Shown in pieces: positions 28,182 to 39,731 of a DNA stretch of 64,000 bases. A program made the position numbers and the translations under genes. Numbering within the stretch: the stretch's first letter is position 1; every line of letters begins with the position of its first letter. The stretch covers positions 1,824,001 through 1,888,000 of the forward strand of contig CAVOXA010000010.1 in assembly GCA_963700285.1 (NCBI GenBank). Direction: 5' to 3'. The notes below the pieces were generated by a model. That model was not told where the DNA came from. It saw only the letters and a program-made list of their open reading frames with translations, and ran no database searches. Source of the stretch: an uncultured Chloroflexia bacterium (lineage in GTDB: Bacteria > Chloroflexota > Anaerolineae > JAAYZQ01).

Positions 28182-29699
28182 ATGCTTGCCAAAGTCGCCA
28201 GCTTTGCCCTGATCGGCCTGGAAAGTACCCTCGTTGACGTGGAGGTCGACATCAGCCGCGGCCTGCCCTCTCAGATCATCGTCGGCCTGCCCGATGCCGC
28301 CGTCCGAGAATCCAGCGAGCGCGTACGAGCGGCCATCGTCAACTCCGGCCTCATCCATCCCCGCGCCCGCCTGACGGTCAACCTGGCCCCCGCCGATCTA
28401 CGCAAGGCGGGCCCGGCCTACGACCTGCCCATCGCCGTCTGCATTCTCCTGGCCACAGAGCAGGTCAGTGCCGACCTGGCGTCGGCCGGCCTGGTTGGGG
28501 AGCTGTCACTGGATGGCCAGGTCCGGGGCGTAACCGGCATGTTGCCCATGGCCGTCGCGGCCCTGGAGCGGGGGCTGACTACTCTCATCGTGCCCGAGTC
28601 CAACGCCGCGGAAGCGGCCCTGGTCCAGGGGCTGGAGGTGATCCCGGTACGCAGCTTGAGCAGCCTGGTCGGCCACCTCCACGGCTATACTCCCATCCCG
28701 CCCTACGAGGGTTCACTGACAGAAGGCGATGGGCTTCCTGTCTATCCGGTCGATTTTCGCGATGTGAAAGGGCAGGAACATGTCAAACGGGCGCTGGAGG
28801 TTGCCTCCGCAGGCTCGCACAATGTGCTTCTCAGCGGCCCGCCGGGCGCAGGCAAGACCCTTTTGGCCCGCGCCGTGCCCTCCATCCTGCCGCGGATGAC
28901 CTTCGAGGAATCGCTGACCGTAACCAAGATCTATAGCGTTGCCGGCCAGTTGCCGCCCGGCATCCCGCTCATCCGCCACCGGCCCTTCCGGGCGCCCCAC
29001 CATACCATCAGCTACGCGGGTCTCGTCGGCGGCGGCAAGGTGCCTCATCCGGGCGAGATCTCTTTGGCGCATCGCGGCGTCCTCTTCTTGGACGAGCTGC
29101 CCGAGTTTGGAACAAGGCTGCTGGAAATGCTGCGCCAGCCACTGGAGGACAAACAACTGACTATCGCCCGCAGTTCGGGTTCTCTGACCTTTCCGACCAA
29201 TTTCATGCTGATCGCGGCACAAAACCCATGTCCCTGTGGTTACTACGGCGATCCGGTCAAAGAGTGCACCTGCTCCAACAGCATGGTCAGCCGCTACCAG
29301 AAGCGCATCTCTGGGCCGTTGTTAGACCGCTTTGACATCCACATCGAGGTCCCCCGTGTGGACTATGAAAAGCTCTCCGGCGACCGGTTGGGGGAGCCCT
29401 CGGCCGCCATCCGGGAGCGGGTGGAGGCGGCGCGGGAGCGCCAGCGCCAGCGATTTGAGGGTACGAGCCTGCTGTCCAACGCCGATATGGGCGCGGCCGA
29501 GGTGCGCAATTTTTGCCAGGTCGATGAAGCCGGCCGGAACCTGCTGCGGGCGGCCATGCAGCAGCTCCACATGAGCGCCCGGGCCTACCATCGCATCCTC
29601 AAGCTGTCCCGGACGATTGCTGACCTGGCCGGCAGCGATGCCATCGAGACGGCGCACCTGGCGGAGGCGATCCAGTACCGGCCTCGGAGGCAGAGCTAG
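28182..29699 (+). CDS. comM: ComM/YifB AAA+ helicase (Mg-chelatase-like), intact
   Basis: IVGLPDAAVRES, VNLAPADLRKAG, GPPGAGKT, RPFRAPHH, GEISLAHRGVLFLDE, NPCPCG, SGPLLDRFD, SARAYHRILK. Confidence 0.95.
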   Translation: MLAKVASFALIGLESTLVDVEVDISRGLPSQIIVGLPDAAVRESSERVRAAIVNSGLIHPRARLTVNLAPADLRKAGPAYDLPIAVCILLATEQVSADLASAGLVGELSLDGQVRGVTGMLPMAVAALERGLTTLIVPESNAAEAALVQGLEVIPVRSLSSLVGHLHGYTPIPPYEGSLTEGDGLPVYPVDFRDVKGQEHVKRALEVASAGSHNVLLSGPPGAGKTLLARAVPSILPRMTFEESLTVTKIYSVAGQLPPGIPLIRHRPFRAPHHTISYAGLVGGGKVPHPGEISLAHRGVLFLDELPEFGTRLLEMLRQPLEDKQLTIARSSGSLTFPTNFMLIAAQNPCPCGYYGDPVKECTCSNSMVSRYQKRISGPLLDRFDIHIEVPRVDYEKLSGDRLGEPSAAIRERVEAARERQRQRFEGTSLLSNADMGAAEVRNFCQVDEAGRNLLRAAMQQLHMSARAYHRILKLSRTIADLAGSDAIETAHLAEAIQYRPRRQS

Positions 29700-29846
29700 G
29701 TATCTCGCCGAATCGCGGTATCAGATTAGGCAGGACCGGAGGTCAAGCAGGCTGAGGCAACGTGGGAGAAGGGGACTGCAGATACCCTGCCTCATCGGTC
29801 ACAGGCCGCAGAAGGCTTGGCCTAGGCGTCTTTTGCGGGGTTGCTT

Positions 29847-30160
29847 TCAGAGTATACTACCACCATCCCCGTCGAACTCCTGCGGATCGCAGCCGACAAC
29901 CCGGAATCAACAGAAGGCTATCTCGCCGCAGTCGAGGTCCGGTGGCGCCGGCGGTATGCACACGTCTGGGTAGCAGGGGCTGCAGATTGGGTCAGGTGTG
30001 GGTGGAGGCGATAGAGGGCTACCTCTGCTGACGTACGGCAAGTAAGCACCCGCAGCGGGTAGGCGAGAAGCAAAGACGGAAACTTGTGCGCCAGGCATCC
30101 TACTCTCCACTACGAGTAGCAGAGCGGCCACGATGACTATCAAGCCTGCGACTGCCACGG
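29847..30160 (-). pseudogene. Small secreted Cys-rich excalibur-like Ca-binding protein with a premature TGA
   Basis: Hydrophobic leader, AYLPYV, CSPCYPDVCIPPAPPDLDCGEIAFC*; same frame continues FRVVGCDPQEFDGDGG after the stop at 29907-29909; start approximate. Confidence 0.55.
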
Positions 30161-30269
30161 TCTTTCGCAGCACGGATTCGGTTCTCCTTGCGAGCTGGTG
30201 GGTGGCTCCTGTGTCCCTATTGTATGCCAAATTACACAGGAGGGCAAGTCGGGCTCTCAAATCTTGGCC

Positions 30270-30530
30270 AGCGGGCCAACGCATTCGAATGGCGTGCTTT
30301 TGATGGCAGCCTGTTGTCTTGACGAAAGCGCCCAGGAGATGACCTTTCTCTTTTCTACTCGCCTGACCGTAGCGGGCCTGAAGCAGCCTGAGGAGGGTGC
30401 CGTCGACTTGACTCACGGGAAGGCTCCTTTCTTGGGTAGCATCTTCTCATGAATCATCGAACCAGCTACGGTAACGTTTATTCGCGAGTCGACAAACGCT
30501 CTTCAGCAATCTTCTTAGTGAGTCAAGTCG
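30270..30530 (-). mobile_element. IS remnant: transposase N-terminal fragment plus three subterminal repeats
   Basis: RYGQASRKEKGHLLGAFVKTTGCHQKHAIR resembles the N-terminus of integrase-core IS transposases; upstream are three GGTAAC..TGAGTCA-like units at 30435, 30470, 30505. Confidence 0.65.
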
Positions 30531-30820
30531 AAGTATTGACTCCTGCACGCTGTTTTGGTACAATTGATTCAGTCATCCCTGAACAACACTGCTCACAGTT
30601 CCTTGCAGCCTCATCGAGGATTGAACCGGTGACCAAGGTACTTGGTGCGCCACGGTCGCAGTCATCAAAGTATAGCACCCGTTCGCCGTCAAGGTGTGGT
30701 GGGTCTTATGCTTTGCCGAGATCCTAGCGTCAAGGTGAGCAGGGCTTCCGCCTGACAGGTCTCGTCCGCTCGTGCCATCCCACGCGCAGGTTCGCTGAAC
30801 CAGCAGGAGGAGGATCTGAG

Positions 30821-32124
30821 ATGAGACTCCGGAGACTTTTACAGTACGCCATCAGTATGGCAGGGATCCTGTCGCTCTTGGTTGGGTGCAGCGCCCCCGC
30901 AGTTGCCCCTGGGGCTGTTGCAGCGTCCTCAAAGGAGCGTATCTTCTCACCAGACACATCGAGCGCGGACCTGAGGGAATTGGCAGCCGGCAATAACGCT
31001 TTCGCCTTCGACCTATACCAGGCTTTGCGTGGCGGAGAGGAAAACCTCCTCTATTCGCCCTATAGCATATCCGTCGCAATGGCCATGGTCTATGCCGGCG
31101 CGCGCGGACAGACGGAACAGCAAATGGCCGATACGCTGCACTTCGAGCTGCCTCAGGAACGGCTGCATCCGGCCTTTAATTCCCTGGACCTCGAATTGGA
31201 CAGCCGCAGCCTCGCAAACACCCGGCTAGACATCGCCAACGCGCTCTGGGGACAGGCAGGGTACACCTTCCTGCGCGAGTACCTGGACCTGCTGGCGCTG
31301 AACTATGGTGCAGGCGTCAGGGTTGTCGACTTTCAGGCTGGCGCCCCTGCGGCGGCCGATGCCATCAACCAATGGGTCAGCCGGGAGACCGAAGGCCGCA
31401 TCCGAGACATTCTGGGACCAGACAGCCTTGGGTCGGACACAGTGCTCGTGCTGGTCGACGCCATCTACTTCGATGCCGACTGGAATTTGCCCTTTGACGA
31501 GGCACGCACCAGAGACGAGCCCTTCCACTTGCTGGACGGCGGTGAGGAGTGGGTGCCCTTGATGTACCAACAGAGCTATTTCTCCTATACAGAGGGCGAT
31601 GGCTATCAGGCGATCCAGTTGCTCTACGAGAACCGCAACCTTGCCATGGTCATCCTGCTACCCAGGAGGGCCAGTTCGGCGAGATCGAGGAGCGGCTGAC
31701 GGCCGACTGGGTGACGGCTGTGCTGAACAGTTTCGACTTGCATGACGTGAGACTAACCATGCCCAAGTTCGGCTTTGAGACACCTGTGCTGAACCTCGGG
31801 CAGATACTCGGAGCCATGGGCATGCCCGACGCGTTTTCAAAGCGCGATGCTGATTTTTCTGCGGTGGCCCGACTACAACCCGGCGAGGCCATCTACCTCA
31901 GCAAAGTATTGCACAAGGCCTTTATTGACGTCGCTGAGGAAGGGACAGAGGCTGCTGCAGCGGTGGTGGTCGTAGAGGAAGTCGAAATAGAGATAGAAGT
32001 TGCCCCAACGGAGCCGCCTCCCATAATCATGAAGATCGATAGACCGTTCATGTTTCTCATCCGTGACGTCAAGACGGGTACCATCCTCTTTGTTGGGCGC
32101 GTCATGAATCCAGCCAGTGAATAG
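30821..32124 (+). pseudogene. Serpin (lipoprotein) split by one frameshift near 31662
   Basis: Lipobox LVGC; NNAFAFDLY, SPYSI, INQWVS.ETEGRI, AIYF..DW..PF in ORF 30821; MPKF, HKAFIDVAEEGTEAAA, DRPFMFLIRD, ILFVGRV in ORF 31549; one missing C in a C run restores ILLP-QEGQF, so it may be a sequencing error. Confidence 0.88.
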
Positions 32125-32412
32125 GGGTTCTTTAGCAGGTTGAGGTATATCATGGCTGGAGCAACCTGTCCTGGCCGGATACTCCTAGTCAATCATCAGA
32201 CAGAAAGCCATGGCTCGCGGGATGTGCTGGTTTGTTCACAACGTCGTCACCCGCCACGCATGGTCACCCTGGAGGTCAGAGGTTACCTCGAACCCCAACA
32301 GAAGTGTAGTCTTGTTGCTATCCCCGCCCGTCTCCCCAGCCAATGAGACGCTATGCAAGCACAAGATGGGCAGTCAAGGCAAACTGATCTTTTGACTTGT
32401 GACCAGGTACAT

Positions 32413-32943
32413 GAGTGCACCTGCTCCAACAGCATGGTCAGCCGCTACCAGAAGCGAGTTCCTTCGGCTTCACTCAGGACAAGCTCTGGGCCGTTGTTAG
32501 ACCGCTTTGACATCCACATCGAGGTCCCCCGTGTGGAAGCCGGCTCAGAAGCCGGACGAAAAGCTCTCCGGCGACCGGTTGGGGGAGCCCTCGGCCCTGT
32601 TGTCGCCGAGAACAGGCGTCATCCAGGGGCGGGTGGAGGCGGCGCGAGCGCGACAGCGCCAACGATTTGAGGGGACGAGCTTGCTATCCAATGCCGACGC
32701 CCTTGCCAGGCAAGCGTTGGCGCGGCCGAGGTGCGCAACTTTTGCCAGGTAGACGAAGCCGGCCGGAATCTTCTGCGAGCGGCCATGCAGCAGCTCCACA
32801 TGAGCGCCCGGGCCTACAGCGAACTCTGGGTTCGCCGCATCCTCAAGCTGTCCCGGACGATTGCTGACCTGGCCGGCAGCGACGCCATCGAAACGGCGCA
32901 CCTGGCGGAGGCGATCCAGTACCGGCCGCGGCGGCAGGGCTGA
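32413..32943 (+). repeat. comM 3'-end copy 2 (direct repeat of 29262-29699) with five hairpin insertions
   Basis: Direct nucleotide alignment to comM; ends ...CAGTACCGGCCGCGGCGGCAGGGCTGA. Confidence 0.95.
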
Positions 32944-33003
32944 GGGCACGGAAACCTACACTGGCCGATATCTCTCTGACTGGATATACCGGGGGCAACA
33001 TAG

Positions 33004-34831
33004 GTGGACGATCAGGCTGTTGAGGCAAGACTGCGGCCCGGCTCGGAGCGGGTATTGGAGGCCGTAGCTTCCGGACGTTTCGCCGGATGGCTACCGTATT
33101 CCCTTCGGCTACAGGCCGAGCGGCTGGCCCTCGTCGCCGGCTTTGACGAGCTGGTCTGTCTGGATATGCTCAACTTTGCACCGTTTGACTATCAGATCCG
33201 AGCGGCCCAGATCGCGCTGCGCCGCTTCCGCGGCCGGGGCCTGCTGTGTGACGAGGTCGGCCTGGGCAAGACCATCGAGGCCGGCCTGGTGCTCAAAGAG
33301 TACCTGGTGCGCCAGATGGTCGGCCGCGTGCTGATCGTCACCCCGCCGGCGCTGGTTGAGCAGTGGCGAGAGGAGCTGAGCAGCAAGTTCGACCTGGCCG
33401 ACTTTGTCGACCAGCCACGATCCATCGTTCCGCGACCTGGGCCCGGAGGCGTGGGCCGCCTTTCCCCGCGTCATTGCCTCCCTGGCCACGGCTCGCCGTC
33501 CCGAACACCGCCGGGCGATCACCGACATCGTCTACGATCTGGTGATCGTGGACGAGGCACACCACCTGAAGAACCGCGCCAGTGTCTCCTGGAAGTTCGT
33601 CAACGCTCTCCAGAAAAAGTACATCCTGCTGCTCACGGCCACGCCGGTACAGAACAACCTGGACGAGCTGTACAATCTGATCACGATCCTCAAACCCGGC
33701 CAGCTCAAGACACCCCGCGAGTTCCGCCGCCAGTTCGTAGTGCGGGGCGACCCGCGGCTGCCCAAGAACCGGGGGCGGCTGCGCGAGCTGCTCGCCGACG
33801 TGATGGTGCGCCACGCGCGGGGACAGGTCGGTGTTCAACTCCCACCCCGCCGCGCCCACACCGTGCGCCTGCAATTGGCGGCCGGACGAACGGGCGCTCT
33901 ACGACGACGTGAGCCACTTTGTTCGACGCTGTATCGGCCTGTCGCCGGCCGCTGACAGCGGCCGGCCAGGTACCTGCCAACGGGCCGGAGGGGGCTGAAG
34001 CGGCGCTGCCGGCCGTCCACCGCTTCACCCTGCGCACGCTCCAACGGGAGATCGGCAGCTCTCCGGCCGCCGTCCGCCCGACCCTGCTGGCGCTGGCCGA
34101 GAAGCCGGCGCTGTCCTCCCAGCGCGAGGCGCTGCTGGGCCTGGCTGATCGCGCCGGCAGCCTCGCCTCCTGGACCAAGGGCCAGGCACTGGAGCGGCTC
34201 CTGCTCTCGAAACTGGCGGCCGACGGCCAGGAGAAGCTGATCATCTTCACCCACTTCCACGCCACTCTGGATCTGCTGGCAGACCTGCTGCGGGGAATGG
34301 GCGTGGACGTGGTGACTCTACCACGGCCGGCTCTCGCGAGCGGAGAAGGACGAGGCCATCCGCCGCTTCGAGCAAAGCGCCCAGGTGCTCCTCTCGACCG
34401 AGGCCGCCGGTGAGGGACGCAACCTTCAGTTCTGCCGCCTTGATGCTCAACTTTGACCTGCCCTGGAATCCGCAGCGCATCGAGCAGCGCGTCGGCCGCA
34501 TCCACCGCGTCGGCCAGACCCGCCCGGTGGAGATTTGGAACCTCTCGGCCGAGGGCACGATCGAGGACTATCTCCTGGAAGTGCTCGACCGCAAAGCTGA
34601 ACATGTTCGAACTGGTCATCGGCGAGATGGACATGATCCTGGGCCACCTGGAGGATGAGCGCGACTTTGAGGAGATCGTGCTGGATACCTGGGTCGCGGG
34701 CCCGAACGCCGGAGGAGGTGGCGGCTGGCTTTACCCGTCTGGGCGAGGCGTTGGCCCAGGCCCGGGATGCCTATCGGCGCACCCGCGAGTACGACGAGGC
34801 GTTGTTCGGAGAGGACTTGTCTACGCTATGA
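33004..34831 (+). pseudogene. SNF2-family helicase (YqhH-like), multiply frameshifted
   Basis: LCDEVGLGKTIEAG, VDEAHHLKN, LLTATPVQN, IIFTHF, LLSTEAAGEGRNLQF, NFDLPWNPQRIEQRVGRIHRVGQ spread over successive frames; start uncertain. Confidence 0.88.
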
Positions 34832-36649
34832 GTGAGCTGGCCGACTTTGTCGCTCAACGCTCTCCGCCAGGCAGGAGGTCTCGTCGATCCGCCGGCCTTT
34901 GATCAATACGACGTGCTTTTGCCTGAGGGGTCGCCCGCCGCTGGCAGGTGCCCGCCTTTCAGCGCCTGACCTTTGCCACCGAGACCCCGGAGGCCGGGAG
35001 CGACGGCGAACCGGTCACCGCCATAGGCTATGGCCACCCGCTGGTGGAGACGCCTGGTGGAGGAGATCCGCGCCGAGCCTGCCCGCATGCAGGCCTTTAT
35101 CAACAGCGTGCGGACCGACAAGCGCGGGCTGTTCTCGCTGGCCCGCCAGGCGCTGGCCTTCCCCAACGCCCGCCTCTCGCGAAGCGCCTCGCCAGAGCGA
35201 GGTCGTGGCGACCTGCCACTATGGCGCGCTTCAATTTCAAGGCCGCCCTGATCACCGATGAGAAGCGGGAGCAGTTGGTCTCGGTGGTGATGGACGTCCA
35301 GGCGGGTTTTGCCGTGCCCGAGCTGGCGCAATTGGAGCGGCTGGTGCGCCTGGAGGACGAGCCGGCGCCAGACTGGCACCTGCCTGCGCCGGTGCGCTGG
35401 CTGCCGGGGCAGACGCCCCTGAGCCGTCCGGTGCTGGACAGACTACTCGAGCGGGCCGTTGACGCTGCCATGCAGGAATTGGCAGCACCGTTGGGGGCAC
35501 TGCGCCATCGGGCTGCCCGCTACCTGGAACTGGATCGCGCCCGTCTCCACGAATATTACGACGACATCAGCCGTGACCTGAAGCGCCGCCTCGATCGCGC
35601 CGGCGACCTGCCTCAGGACCAGGCACAGCGCCGGGCTTCTCTGGAGGACAAGCTGGCCGCGACTGACGCAGAGCGGGAGGCCAAACTGGCCGACGTCGAG
35701 GCCAAGTATCGCCCAGAGGTGGAGCTGGAACTGATCAACCTCCAGGTAATCCACCAACCCAAGGTACTCCTGCCGGTGCACATTGGCACCCGCTCGACCA
35801 CCGTCGAGCGCACCGTCGTCTGGGACCCGCTGCTGCACCGCATTGAGCCGCTGGCATGCGACGTGTGCGGGCAGTCGGCGACGCGGCTGATGCTGTGCAG
35901 CGGTGGGCACCTGGCCCACGAGCACTGCCTGCTGCCTGAGCAGTGCGTAGATTGCAAGCGGGTCTACTGCCGCCTCTGCTCCGTTCGGATGGGCCGCTGT
36001 GCGGTATGCGAGCGCCCGGTGTGTGTCCCCAGCCTGAACCGCTGCGGTGAATGCGGACGGGCAACCTGTCGCGAACACGTCGGGCTGTGTCACGCCTCTG
36101 CCGGGCTCCCGGCACGCCCCTCTCCAACCCCTACCCCCGAGCCACCGAAGAAGGAGGAGGGGCTAGACATCCCACCCCCGGCTGCCCAGCCTGCGGTGAA
36201 GGAACAGCCCGTTGCGCCCAAGGGCAAGGCCCGCCAGACCGCCAGGCCCGCCCCGAAAACGAGACAGCGTCCCATCGCCAGGGCGCCGGCCAAGGTGACT
36301 CCCTCCAAGATCGAGGTGTACGTCGAATCTGAGGAGCCCGTGGTGAATGCTTTTGTGCTGACAAAGGGAGCCAAGCAGCTGGCGGTTCGCTCCTGGAAGT
36401 GGACCGGCCAGGCCATCGCGGTCACGTGCCTCTGCGAGTTGGGGTACGCTTGCCCGTTGAACGGGAGGCTGTTGGAGCCGGACAGATGCCGCCGGCGTCG
36501 AAGCGCAGATCAGGGCCCAGATCGAGGACCTGCGCCGGGACTATGGCATTTCCACGCGGCGGGTACTCTACTATGCTTTCGTCCATGGCGTGCCTCGGCA
36601 GGTACCACGCCTGACCCTCTCGGGCGAGTGGAAGGCGAAGCAGGAGTGA
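34828..36649 (+). pseudogene. YqhG-like partner protein with a Cys-rich (Zn-binding) C-terminal region, frameshifted
   Basis: ATGA overlap with the helicase stop; FNFKAALITDEKRE, RLHEYY..., coiled coil, then many CxxC pairs; reconstructed end GEWKAKQE* at 36649. Confidence 0.65.
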
Positions 36650-36738
36650 CCAGGCGTCGACCTTTGCCGAATTCCGTTGGCTCAAGCTCCGCCGCTACAT
36701 ATCGGGGTACCACGGGTGGAGGTTTAGTCACTGGCGGA

Positions 36739-37155
36739 CGACCGGCTGGGCGAGCCGTCGGTAGCGATCCGGGTGCGGGTAGAGGCGGCGCTGGAGCGCC
36801 AGCACCAGCGGTTTGAGGGTACGAGCCTGCTGTCAAATGCCGACGCGCTTACCAGGCAAGCGTCTGCGCGGCCGAGGTACGCAACTTTTGCCAGGTAGAC
36901 GATGTCGTGCCATACCCAGGCACGGGCGCCGGAACCTGCTGCGGGCGGCCATGCAGCAGCTCCACATGAGCGCCCGGGCCTACAACGAACTCTGGGTTCG
37001 CCGCATCCTCATGCTGTCCAGGACAATCGCCGACCCTTCGACAGACTCAGGGCAGGCCTGGCGGGCAGTGAGGGGATCGAGACGGCGCATCCTTCGACTT
37101 TGCTCAGGACAGGCCTGCGGAGGCGATCCAGTACCGGCCGCGACGGCAAACTTGA
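36739..37155 (+). repeat. comM 3'-end copy 3 (direct repeat of about 29381-29699) with five hairpin insertions
   Basis: Direct nucleotide alignment to comM; ends ...CAGTACCGGCCGCGACGGCAAACTTGA. Confidence 0.93.
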
Positions 37156-37277
37156 GACACAGGGAGAGATGTGGTGAATGAGCCTGAGCCGTTGATGCGA
37201 CTTTGGCAGTAAAACTTGGAGCAATTGGCACCACGGACCCGCCTGCTGTTGGTGTTGTCGATGGGCCGGCGTTTGCC

Positions 37278-37946
37278 TCAGTCGATGGGAATGACGTCGG
37301 CGTAGGCAAACCCACCCCGCTGCACGACCTCCCCAATCTCGACCTCAATGCGTTTCTCAAACATCGGCCCAGCAACAACGATGGTGTGAATCTCTCCGTT
37401 CTCTCCACACGGGTCAACTCCCGGGGGAAGCTCCTTCAGCAGGTCGCGTGACCACCGGCGGCCCGCGAAACTCGCTGGTAGCTTTTTGAGATCCACACTG
37501 CTGATGTATGCTTCCAGATCGGCGGCGAGCATCTGTTCGGCCAACTCGACAGTGGGGATCTGCCACAGTGGAAAGAGGGGCTCAATCCCACTACCCGCGA
37601 GCTGTCCCTCACGGTACCGACGCACGTCCTCAAGAAACAGGTCGCCGAACGCAATGCACTCCGTCCCCATGGCTGCAGCCCCGGCAACAAACTCGCCCAT
37701 GAGCTCATCGGATCGCTCGATCGTGCAGGGATCTGGTAGATTGATCGTATGGAGCGCCAGGCCAGCTGCCTCCGCTTGCCGAGAAAGCAGCTCTGTTCTT
37801 GTCGAGTGCATGGACACGCGGTTGTACCGCTCGTTCACTACGCTGAACAATCCAACAACATCAACTGTGGGATCCAGTCGCAGGACGTACAGTGCCCAGG
37901 CACTATCCTTGCCGCTACTCCAACTCAGTAACGTTTTCTTTCTCAT
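37278..37946 (-). CDS. PP-loop ATPase, diphthine-ammonia ligase/MJ0570-like
   Basis: SWSSGKDS, FGDLFLEDVRRYRE, FPLW, DPCGENGEIHT. Confidence 0.88.
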   Translation of the reverse strand: MRKKTLLSWSSGKDSAWALYVLRLDPTVDVVGLFSVVNERYNRVSMHSTRTELLSRQAEAAGLALHTINLPDPCTIERSDELMGEFVAGAAAMGTECIAFGDLFLEDVRRYREGQLAGSGIEPLFPLWQIPTVELAEQMLAADLEAYISSVDLKKLPASFAGRRWSRDLLKELPPGVDPCGENGEIHTIVVAGPMFEKRIEVEIGEVVQRGGFAYADVIPID

Positions 37947-38330
37947 GGTATTCTTTGTCGAACAGCCAAGCTCATCCACCAACACAGCTTGCCGCTAATC
38001 TATCCAGCAACGTGCCTCTTCACCACCAGCGTATCAAACAAGTGCTGAATCCCGCTGGGTGCGAGAATAAGGGCAGCACCTTCTCGCCGCAGCCTGATCA
38101 AGCCGCCTCCGTAGTCAACAGCCACCTGGTCGGTTGCCTGGATGGTGTCAAAGTCTTCACCGATCAGCAGATCGCTGACGCCGTTGGGGTACCGTGCCGT
38201 CCTGGCCTTGATGATAGGTCTCGCCCAGGAGGATCAGCCGAAAGTAGTCGAGGCAGTGCTCTGGGTTGACTGTAGTCAAAGGGATGGCGTGATCGGCTGC
38301 AGCTTGCTTCACAGGTGTTTCTCTCTGTGC

Positions 38331-39731
38331 TCATACGTGGAGCCTGCTCTCCCCCAGATAGTGATATAGATGCACTGCCCTCTCGATACCGAGCCCAAAG
38401 TGGTCCAGAAGCAGATACTCGTTGGGTGCGTGGCCGTTGTCGCCAACGCCAAGACCAAAGTCCAGCATGGGAATCCCCAGTTCGCTGTGCAGCATACCTA
38501 ATACCGGTATCGAACCCCCATGCCGGAACAGGACCGCCCGCTGTCCCCATGTCGCCTCGTATGCTCGCTGCAATGCCGCAAGGGCAGGACCCTCGCTAAG
38601 CAGCTCGGCTGGCTTGCTCCTATCCACAATCTCCACCCGGATCTCCAGCGTCGGGCACTCGAAACTCATAACAAAGTCGCGGAACTTCCGGGCGATGTCG
38701 TCGGGAGCCTGGTCGGGGACGATGCGCATGCTGGCTTTCAAACCGGCCATGGCAGGGATGATGGTCATCTGACCCTCATCTGTGTAGCCGCCGTAGACGC
38801 CGGTTACATCCAGTGTCGGCTGCATCGTCGCCCGCTCCAGCACCGAGAACTCTGGTACACCCCAGAATTCAGCCACCCCAGATTTCGCCTGGAAGGACGG
38901 GATGGCGATAGGTTCCCATGCCTTCAATTGCTCCAGGACAGATGGAGAACCCTGGCGAACGTCATCATAGTATCCTGGAATCTGAATCCGTCCTTCATCG
39001 TTGTGAAACGCGGCAATGATCTTGCCAACCATGTGCGCAGGATTGTGAACGATCCCGCCAAAGGATCCCGAATGCAGGTCCCGCCGGGGCCCGGTGATGA
39101 TGACGTCCCCCGCCACAATGCCGCGTGTCGATGTTGCACACAAGGGCTGATCGGGCAACGGACCGCCATCGGAGACGAGCAGCAGATCTGCCGCTAGGAG
39201 TTCCCTGTGCTCGGCGATGAAGGCTCCCATGCTCGGTGAGCCAGCTTCCTCCTCTCCCTCAAAGAACACTTTGACGTTGACGGGGAGTTCCCCCGCGGAT
39301 CCGAGCATCGCCTCCAATGCCTTCAAGTTGATATAGGCGCCGGCCTTGTCGTCTATCACCCCACGGGCATATAGCTTGTCGTCCCGGATCGCCGGCTCAA
39401 AGGGAGGGGACTCCCACAATTCAATGGGGCCGAAAGGTTGGACGTCGTAGTGCGCATACACCAACAGCGTTGGCTGATCAGGACCTGCTTCCAGCCACTC
39501 GCCGTAGGCCACGGGATGACCTTCACTCGGCAGTACCTGGGCGTTCCTTAGCCCGATTCTGGTCATCTCGGCCACCAGCCACTCTGCCGCACGCAACACA
39601 TCGCCTGTGTAGGCCGGATTGGTGCTGATAGAGGGGATGCGCAGCAGCTGTTTAAAATCTTCCAGAAATACCCCGTAATTCTCCTGAGCATAGGCAACTG
39701 CATGCTGAATCGTTTCTTTTTGCCCTGTCAT
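38331..39731 (-). CDS. M20 family dipeptidase
   Basis: YAHYDVQP, ARGVIDDK, EGEEEAGS, DLHSG, GGSIP, HAPNE; RBS before MTGQKE. Confidence 0.9.
   Translation of the reverse strand: MTGQKETIQHAVAYAQENYGVFLEDFKQLLRIPSISTNPAYTGDVLRAAEWLVAEMTRIGLRNAQVLPSEGHPVAYGEWLEAGPDQPTLLVYAHYDVQPFGPIELWESPPFEPAIRDDKLYARGVIDDKAGAYINLKALEAMLGSAGELPVNVKVFFEGEEEAGSPSMGAFIAEHRELLAADLLLVSDGGPLPDQPLCATSTRGIVAGDVIITGPRRDLHSGSFGGIVHNPAHMVGKIIAAFHNDEGRIQIPGYYDDVRQGSPSVLEQLKAWEPIAIPSFQAKSGVAEFWGVPEFSVLERATMQPTLDVTGVYGGYTDEGQMTIIPAMAGLKASMRIVPDQAPDDIARKFRDFVMSFECPTLEIRVEIVDRSKPAELLSEGPALAALQRAYEATWGQRAVLFRHGGSIPVLGMLHSELGIPMLDFGLGVGDNGHAPNEYLLLDHFGLGIERAVHLYHYLGESRLHV

Follow-up and report, generated by a model that had tools for sequence, protein, structure and literature searches.

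The window analyzed here is a stretch of 64,000 nucleotides (nt) from an uncultured Chloroflexia bacterium (contig CAVOXA010000010.1, positions 1,824,001 to 1,888,000). It contains an intact comM gene and, downstream, two displaced copies of the comM 3' end (copies 2 and 3), which carry ten short hairpins. These hairpins are foreign inserts of 15–24 nt in leftover comM 3' ends that lie between stacked cargo cassettes. The genome under study is referred to as G000 and its relatives as G001, G020 and so on; comM positions are numbered on the intact gene. The comM copies and their inserts, some of which are related to repetitive extragenic palindromic (REP) sequences, are as follows.

28182..29699, + strand: intact comM (YifB, Mg-chelatase-like ATPase; Pfam PF01078, PF13541, PF13335), 505 amino acids, heading the cassette stack
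32401..32941, + strand: copy 2, displaced comM 3' end, nt 1069–1516, frameshifted, five inserts
32460..32483, + strand: insert at nt 1127, CCTTCG..CTCAGG (main) family, related to GTCA-headed REPs
32538..32555, + strand: insert at nt 1181, GGCTC..GAGCC type; a fourth copy, on contig C7, has a near-identical insert and G052 a related one
32596..32616, + strand: insert at nt 1223, observed only here
32698..32716, + strand: insert at nt 1304 (copy 2), CTTG..CAAG type; common to copy 3 and the C7 copy, with similar lost junction bases
32818..32834, + strand: insert at nt 1407 (copy 2), resembling the GYGGAC..GTCCRC REP family
36698..37148, + strand: copy 3, displaced comM 3' end, nt ~1159–1511, five inserts
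36844..36862, + strand: insert at nt 1304 (copy 3), family as in copy 2
36905..36926, + strand: insert at nt 1351 (copy 3)
36984..37000, + strand: insert at nt 1407 (copy 3), family as in copy 2
37034..37056, + strand: insert at nt 1442 (copy 3), CCTTCG..CTCAGG family; the most recurrent site
37090..37113, + strand: insert at nt 1475 (copy 3), CCTTCG..CTCAGG family

Copies 2 and 3 are 92% and 84% identical to intact comM. Alignment to the intact gene places all ten inserts where a previous sequence-only reading had put them, at eight distinct sites (nt 1127, 1181, 1223, 1304, 1351, 1407, 1442, and 1475). The net gains are 24, 16, 21, 17, and 15 nt in copy 2 (nt 1127, 1181, 1223, 1304, and 1407) and 17, 20, 15, 23, and 24 nt in copy 3 (nt 1304, 1351, 1407, 1442, and 1475). 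The size of 18–27 nt given in that reading holds if replaced bases are counted; the net added length is 15–24 nt. Bases are lost at three of the five insert junctions in copy 2. Intact comM is free of inserts, as had been noticed. Seven of the inserts fold as short hairpins (−4.3 to −7.2 kcal/mol with DNA parameters), whereas the three of the CCTTCG..CTCAGG type are bulged and fold weakly (−1.4 to −2.9 kcal/mol). Since perfect 6-bp stems are common in the local DNA (2.5 per kb), the evidence for these elements is insertion relative to comM, not the stem. A decayed sequence at the start of copy 3 (36661–36686) may, by eye, be an eleventh insert, of the main family, at nt 1127.

An assembly artifact was rejected for inserts 2–5 of copy 2 and for intact comM. 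Raw reads had been named as a check, and short-read contigs from run X3 correspond to 32502–32697 and 32699–32937 with no differences, carrying four copy 2 inserts unchanged; a contig from run X4 corresponds to 29154–29407 of intact comM, also with no differences. The matching runs hold small shares of the window, and one may be the source of the assembly. A contig from run X1 over 36670–36970 is 98% identical to copy 3, with 6 other letters and 20 gap letters. On this single contig, the 1351 insert is likely absent from the X1 relative of copy 3. A run X2 contig lacks the 1407 insert. No RNA run was listed as containing the window, a result that carries no information on expression. Because a relative of copy 3 at 98% identity has a 20-nt gap matching the 1351 insert, the insertion process appears to be recent.

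The comM C-terminus was matched in 358 of 401 genomes of the class. Regions were fetched only from genomes with split or multiple comM matches, so the sample is enriched. Together, 38 selected genomes contributed 93 non-intact comM pieces (27,661 aligned nt) with 102 insertions of at least 10 nt, of which 74 are hairpin-like or of a known family. Two full genes (G046 L039 and G015 L044) are included in these three counts and excluded from the clustering and reading-frame counts below. Aligning fragments from related genomes had been suggested as a check, and hairpins do recur at the same sites across the class. With one event counted per genome per 8-nt bin, 54 events formed 70 same-bin pairs, compared with 22 in simulations (maximum 49 in 5000), although kin are not independent. 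There are about 20 insertion sites in 370 nt of comM. The main family occurs in comM leftovers 21 times in sense and never in antisense, in 11 genomes and at only four or five sites; each comM locus has one orientation, in a strand-specific pattern. For another family, all matches in G020 (2/2) and G294 (1/1) lie in comM leftovers, as does one of eight in G191.

The sites are shared by unrelated inserts. Three to five unrelated families occur at nt 1304–1306 and again at nt 1406–1410, and inserts nest within one another, growing from 24 to 112 nt at nt 1361. Site 1442 accounts for 21 of 107 metagenome matches, or 22 with one judged by alignment, when its 7 target bases are fixed; G000 alone has 4,640 such 7-mers, 520 of them non-coding. 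The inserts at this site comprise 19 variants from 26 sources. At nt 1127 there are at least six variants, and with its nine target bases fixed, six of nine loci are comM (two of the six overlapping). Repeated insertion is likely, because so many variants occur at 1442 and 1127 and because unrelated families share sites. The net insert lengths divide 26/22/31 modulo 3, and selection on frame was rejected. A role in RNA, which had been raised before, or in protein is not supported, given these lengths, the lack of any Rfam match in 29000–38500, the interchangeability of families, and the many hairpin-free leftovers. Nor is there support for hairpins marking recombination sites, as had also been considered; the junctions sit upstream of them.

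We compared the density of inserts with that in other DNA. Copies 2 and 3 contain 10 inserts in 797 aligned nt. In the non-coding DNA aligned between G000 and G001 (52,117 nt, within 800 kb of the 7.3 Mb of G001), there were two hairpin-like inserts specific to G000 and four specific to G001. A set of 209 homologous fragments (85.7 kb) yielded 16 inserts, of which eight were in comM leftovers, five in REP repeats, and three elsewhere. Density in the aligned non-coding DNA and in the other homologous fragments is more than 100-fold lower. A first pseudogene control (322 non-comM remnants, 86.9 kb) gave three inserts, all in REPs, but was polluted by frameshifted live genes and missed a metG leftover. 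In a 73-kb stack of G264, 16 of 23 motif rows fall in detected leftovers; judged by eye, the flanks of at least two others are comM-like. The earlier interpretation is supported in part: the data favor a REP-related insertion process that prefers particular sites, acted recently, and is much denser here than in ordinary non-coding DNA.

Hairpin insertion is not specific to comM, because a metG 3' leftover in G000 (C10:641545-642181, ~9 kb from its parent) has four or five similar inserts. The same density in neutral DNA, named beforehand as grounds for dismissal, was not seen in the aligned non-coding DNA. A second short metG copy lies at C10:643013-643131. No inserts were seen in two tRNA leftovers in G000.

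Inserts generally consist of a hairpin and a 4–6-nt tail without target duplication; in the main family, the hairpin is 23–24 nt and the tail 4 nt. The main family inserts cleanly at nt 1127, 1415, 1442, and 1475. It has 59 strict matches in G000, compared with ~1 per Mb of shuffled sequence, and 162 matches in G162; of its 6 matches in G264, 3 are in comM leftovers. Its copies are often contained in GTCA- or GTAG-headed REPs and occur as well in insertion sequence (IS) copies, REPs, intron-like DNA, and, in frame, genes. Read on the reverse strand, the family is similar to the heads of GTCA REPs flanking small GIY-YIG genes. The 1407 type resembles the GYGGAC..GTCCRC family (98 matches in G000 against 10 expected), and repeats like it flank a Y1 transposase gene on contig C22. 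Five of the ten inserts thus resemble REP families of G000, and the genome-wide counts once proposed gave an excess for the main and 1407 types.

Other tests of the families were negative or slight. Genome-wide, the main family has no transcription-strand bias (22 vs 30). Among 129 main-family loci in viral contigs, none is comM; for three other families, the viral matches (3, 22, and 4 loci) appear to be no more than chance. Mean pairing at hot sites is 0.49 on the sense and 0.54 on the antisense strand, against 0.57; four main-family sites have low sense-strand pairing (0.19–0.36), but are too few to count. As separate observations, a 24-nt main-family hairpin lies in frame in recF of G191 (C9, L157), and another in a reading frame resembling a solute-binding protein (L057). 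In G191:C30 (L177, L178), a CAAGTG-tailed hairpin is inserted at one shared A^T position of both copies of a sequence that may resemble a group II intron.

Identity between the copies and the live gene is a patchwork. Copy 2 has no mismatches to the live gene over 135 nt in three segments around hairpins 1–3, and these segments include 11 positions at which the live gene of G000 differs from that of G001; further on, there are 21 mismatches in 275 nt. When the G000 and G001 copies are considered together, 15 sites group the copies by genome; the 5 sites that group them by copy all lie at nt 1071–1080 (the junction). Copies 2 and 3 share derived bases between nt 1299 and 1409. The fourth comM copy, on G000 contig C7 and not noted in the sequence-only reading, is 77% identical; it has inserts at 1127, 1181, and 1304 and a double hairpin near 1408. 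Its hairpins at 1181 and 1304 are shared, and similar bases are lost at their junctions. The patchwork in copy 2 and the sharing of hairpins with the diverged C7 copy indicate that hairpins persist or move independently of their flanks. It is likely that they survive or ride gene conversion. Conversion between copies, which was not part of the earlier proposal, explains part of the hairpin density and part of the site recurrence. Large loops escape MutS. MutS is present in five of five genomes, and NucS was not found in G000. In Salmonella, conversion tracts are more than 96% contiguous and are blocked by large heterologies (PMC5485169). By analogy, these data would fit tracts ending at hairpins better than one tract that skips them.

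The remainder of the stack consists of cargo and of conserved arms.

30821..32124, + strand: cargo 1, serpin gene in two frames (PF00079 in both pieces)
32234..32331, + strand: conserved arm, with terminal bases resembling the comM NPCPCG codons (nt ~1045)
32340..32423, + strand: second arm and junction into copy 2, common to G001
33004..36650, + strand: cargo 2, SNF2 helicase gene and partner

The first arm is common to G001 and G020, and a similar arm is found in G019; it is likely to be the attR remnant of an earlier integration. The second arm contains an imperfect inverted repeat centered on GA at comM nt ~1081, which by eye is like that of a serine recombinase site. Around this GA, 9 of 11 bases at 32401–32426 are symmetric, a count made by eye and without a statistic. 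Leftover 5' junctions cluster near nt 1040–1050 and 1069–1081 in many genomes. The Mg-chelatase/comM gene family is the target of 12.4% of predicted site-specific large serine recombinases (PMC10083194). We infer that the displaced comM 3' ends come from large-serine-recombinase integrations. The corresponding domain, PF07508, is present in G020 and G342 on contigs other than the stacks, and was not found in G264, G191, or G052, nor among 73 cargo proteins.

The serpin gene (30821–32124) is the first cassette and is split by a frameshift; G001 has other cargo at the same place. The SNF2 cassette is 87% identical to the one directly 3' of comM in G020. Relative to three relatives, it has ~14 single-base insertions, which may be decay or assembly error, and no hairpin inserts. 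Copies 2 and 3 lie between cargo cassettes that have no integrase. Relatives share this build, and in G264 (C33:20000-93000, L100-L103) more than 10 comM leftovers are stacked across 60 kb, with cargo of a housekeeping type (GMP synthase, RNase HII, electron transfer flavoprotein, and glycosyltransferases). No integrase was found among the 73 of 151 cargo open reading frames scanned, and the cargo is metabolic or defensive. Behind comM in G342 (C30, L131) are cassettes with type III CRISPR RAMPs and Hachiman-like genes, and in G020 (C15, L033) there is Wadjet. On G000 contig C6 (10784-22905), three 3' copies of one gene end lie downstream of their parent, without hairpins, in a possible cassette stack.

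We propose that REP-derived single hairpins are pasted onto single-stranded island arms by an HUH-type enzyme and are then ratcheted up by conversion, a reading on which our confidence is evenly balanced. Large-serine-recombinase-type elements would integrate at comM nt ~1045 or ~1081, each supplying a new gene end and displacing the old end downstream. When the arms exchange strands with the live gene, or when cassettes are transferred, one strand of the arms may be exposed as single-stranded DNA more often than is the case for other DNA. A REP-processing enzyme like HUH transposases or REP-associated tyrosine transposases (RAYTs), acting in trans, would excise one unit of foot plus hairpin. 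The unit would be joined into the exposed strand, often into an earlier hairpin, with no target duplication. Selection would purge the live gene, but not the leftovers, of frameshifting inserts. Conversion would erase point differences, and looped-out hairpins would escape repair or be copied as units, which would act as the ratchet. Leftover gene ends of genomic islands would in this way trap mobile DNA that is among the smallest. The anatomy of foot plus hairpin and the lack of duplication match HUH chemistry (PMC6006769). Y1 transposase genes lie at C22:46243, C22:118812, and C10:223250 in G000. Small GIY-YIG genes flanked by GTCA-headed REP dimers occur in G000 (C15:68802, C9:72283), G264, and G342. 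Their arrangement with the dimers (G000 C15:68802, C9:72283; L187, L188, L197) is like that of RAYT REPtrons.

Several observations weigh against this proposal. No enzyme is tied to the inserts; the search for HUH Y1 genes that had been recommended found them in all six genomes searched, including G342, whose comM leftovers are hairpin-free. A serine recombinase (PF07508) was not found in G000, a genome that is 89% complete. For the 1181, 1223, 1304, and 1351 types, the rest of G000 holds no surplus of matches, which leaves half of the inserts without a visible source. No tetranucleotide target is apparent at 124 viral sites, where flanks are near random apart from a C fixed by the search pattern, and no replication-strand bias was found for the main family (24 vs 19 by local GC skew, a noisy measure in a draft genome). 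The metG inserts are in mixed orientation, and three other 3' leftovers on G000 contig C6 have no inserts. comM leftovers in G001 (including its orthologue of copy 2), G342, G309, and G405 are hairpin-free. The contiguity of the Salmonella tracts means that a tract skipping loops needs an extra assumption, and, overall, mismatches are only a little more frequent within 5 nt of inserts (15.5% vs 13.4%). Finally, the controls are imperfect: part of the aligned non-coding DNA is under selection, and the "fragments" include some live genes with frameshifts.

Other explanations account for parts of these data. Recurrence could result from a few ancient insertions per site, spread later among comM leftovers by homologous recombination or transformation and diversified by fast-mutating loops, with no ongoing hot spot. 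One family does occupy the same site in several families of the class, the 1181 and 1304 junction losses are common to copies that are only 77–84% identical, and there is no extended target motif. We nevertheless consider this unlikely, since unrelated families share sites, many of the 19 variants at 1442 have loops found at unrelated places in the genome, the 1351 insert looks polymorphic in the 98% relative, and the metG leftover was hit separately. The use of fixed sites by unrelated families would also be expected if a comM-targeting nuclease or recombinase, for example the small REP-flanked GIY-YIG type, nicked fixed positions and repair patched in a hairpin, filled copies being immune. 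The GIY-YIG genes with GTCA-headed REP dimers in G000, G264, and G342 and the bases lost at three of five copy 2 junctions agree with such capture. It seems quite improbable all the same: about 20 sites in 370 nt are too many for one nuclease, G342 has small GIY-YIG genes yet clean leftovers, and G162 has 162 main-family copies yet no small GIY-YIG match (uvrC-sized hits aside).

If any unselected DNA collected hairpins alike, those in leftovers would simply be visible against the parent sequence. The occurrence of the main family in IS copies, REPs, intron-like DNA, and in frame in genes, the similarity of the metG leftover, and the chance that controls are under selection are in keeping with such neutral accumulation. 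It is made decidedly unlikely by the more than 100-fold lower density in the two control sets and by the absence of inserts from the 3.7-kb frameshifted SNF2 cassette, whose frameshifts may be errors. Moreover, comM leftovers hold half of the six matches in G264, both of those in G020, and the single one in G294, and one site accounts for ~20% of metagenome matches. We think it very improbable that the inserts are selected homology breakers, which, every ~90 nt, split 450-nt direct repeats and reduce RecA-mediated deletion of cassettes, and are favored with useful cargo. Spacing in copy 2 is even, and the longest stacks (G264, G191) are rich in inserts, with metabolic cargo and no integrase among 73 proteins scanned. 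However, the G342 stack of defense cargo persists without hairpins, conversion continues between hairpins, and point changes would do equally well. Least credible is de novo template switching on single-stranded comM DNA, another suggestion of the sequence-only reading, by which hairpins would be built from neighboring bases. The 1223 and 1304 inserts have local matches of 7–8 nt, a length that ~8% of random windows reach, and four families have no source elsewhere, but in 8 of the 10 inserts local matches are 5 nt or shorter, at or below chance, and five inserts resemble genome-wide repeat families. Copying from flanks was rejected on this basis, as no insert matches its own flanks beyond chance.

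The proposal of REP-derived hairpins pasted onto single-stranded arms can be extended, with some doubt, to a bolder form. In this rather unlikely version, single-hairpin mobile elements of 15–30 nt, smaller than any miniature inverted-repeat transposable element, would home into single-stranded island arms (comM, metG), nest there, and persist when the arms are converted to the live-gene sequence, so that cassette arrays of up to 60 kb without an integrase would be locked in place. The inserts bear on how REP hairpins move, particularly hairpins for which no transposase is known. The displaced comM ends offer dozens of filled and empty sites that can be compared with a known parent, so that junctions, orientation, and nesting order are readable and defined substrates are available for testing candidate enzymes. 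The inserts may further indicate at which points island arms are exposed as single strands and in what way repeats and the live gene exchange sequence, and in-frame copies add 8-residue peptides to live proteins such as RecF.

A literature search found no description of hairpin inserts in displaced comM ends (subscription journals and supplements were outside its coverage). The closest known systems are REPs of the GTAG and CGTC superfamilies, with their REPIN (REP doublet forming hairpins) and BIME (bacterial interspersed mosaic element) arrangements and RAYT (TnpA-REP) enzymes. These are imperfect hairpins on the 20-nt scale with an unpaired, one-sided foot (PMC3733652; PMC6006769). The comM inserts, hairpins of 17–24 nt of which three are bulged, agree with a definition as imperfect palindromes of 20–40 nt, and their families occur as single copies or dimers, within other palindromes, and in frame in genes. 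The main and 1407 types are multicopy, as REPs are, whereas the 1181, 1223, 1304, and 1351 types are not in excess. Repeats like the 1407 type flank the Y1 gene on C22, whereas those related to the main family are found around small GIY-YIG genes. The main family ends in CA(G/A/T)G, that is, a foot of C(C/A/T)TG and not GTAG or CGTC, although it may match a CGTC variant. The comM inserts also differ in entering as single hairpins, in that displaced gene ends accumulate several unrelated families, at recurring sites and in one orientation, and in that four families lack a genomic reservoir.

The ends of IS200/IS605 elements are similar in having a short subterminal hairpin and foot and no target duplication, and their strand specificity has a counterpart in the comM leftovers (PMC6006769). 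Unlike those elements, each comM insert is one hairpin, without left and right ends and without a transposase, and neither a tetranucleotide target nor a replication-strand bias was found for the main family. Rickettsia palindromic elements (RPEs) resemble the inserts as palindromic DNA inside coding sequence, in frame where tolerated, as in G191 recF (PMC3733652). The comM inserts are much shorter than RPE-1 and are concentrated in non-coding leftovers, where they are mostly out of frame. RPE-1 is about 150 nt long. The islands that large serine recombinases form at comM (PMC10083194) share displaced 3' ends at a recurrent junction, conserved arms, and stacked cargo. The comM stacks differ in that no recombinase was found in G000 or in the scanned stacks, and in the hairpins of their displaced ends, which the passage cited does not mention. 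Against this background, the inserts, to which no putative role is assigned, are real, occur across the class, and are REP-like micro-elements that strongly favor certain leftover island ends.

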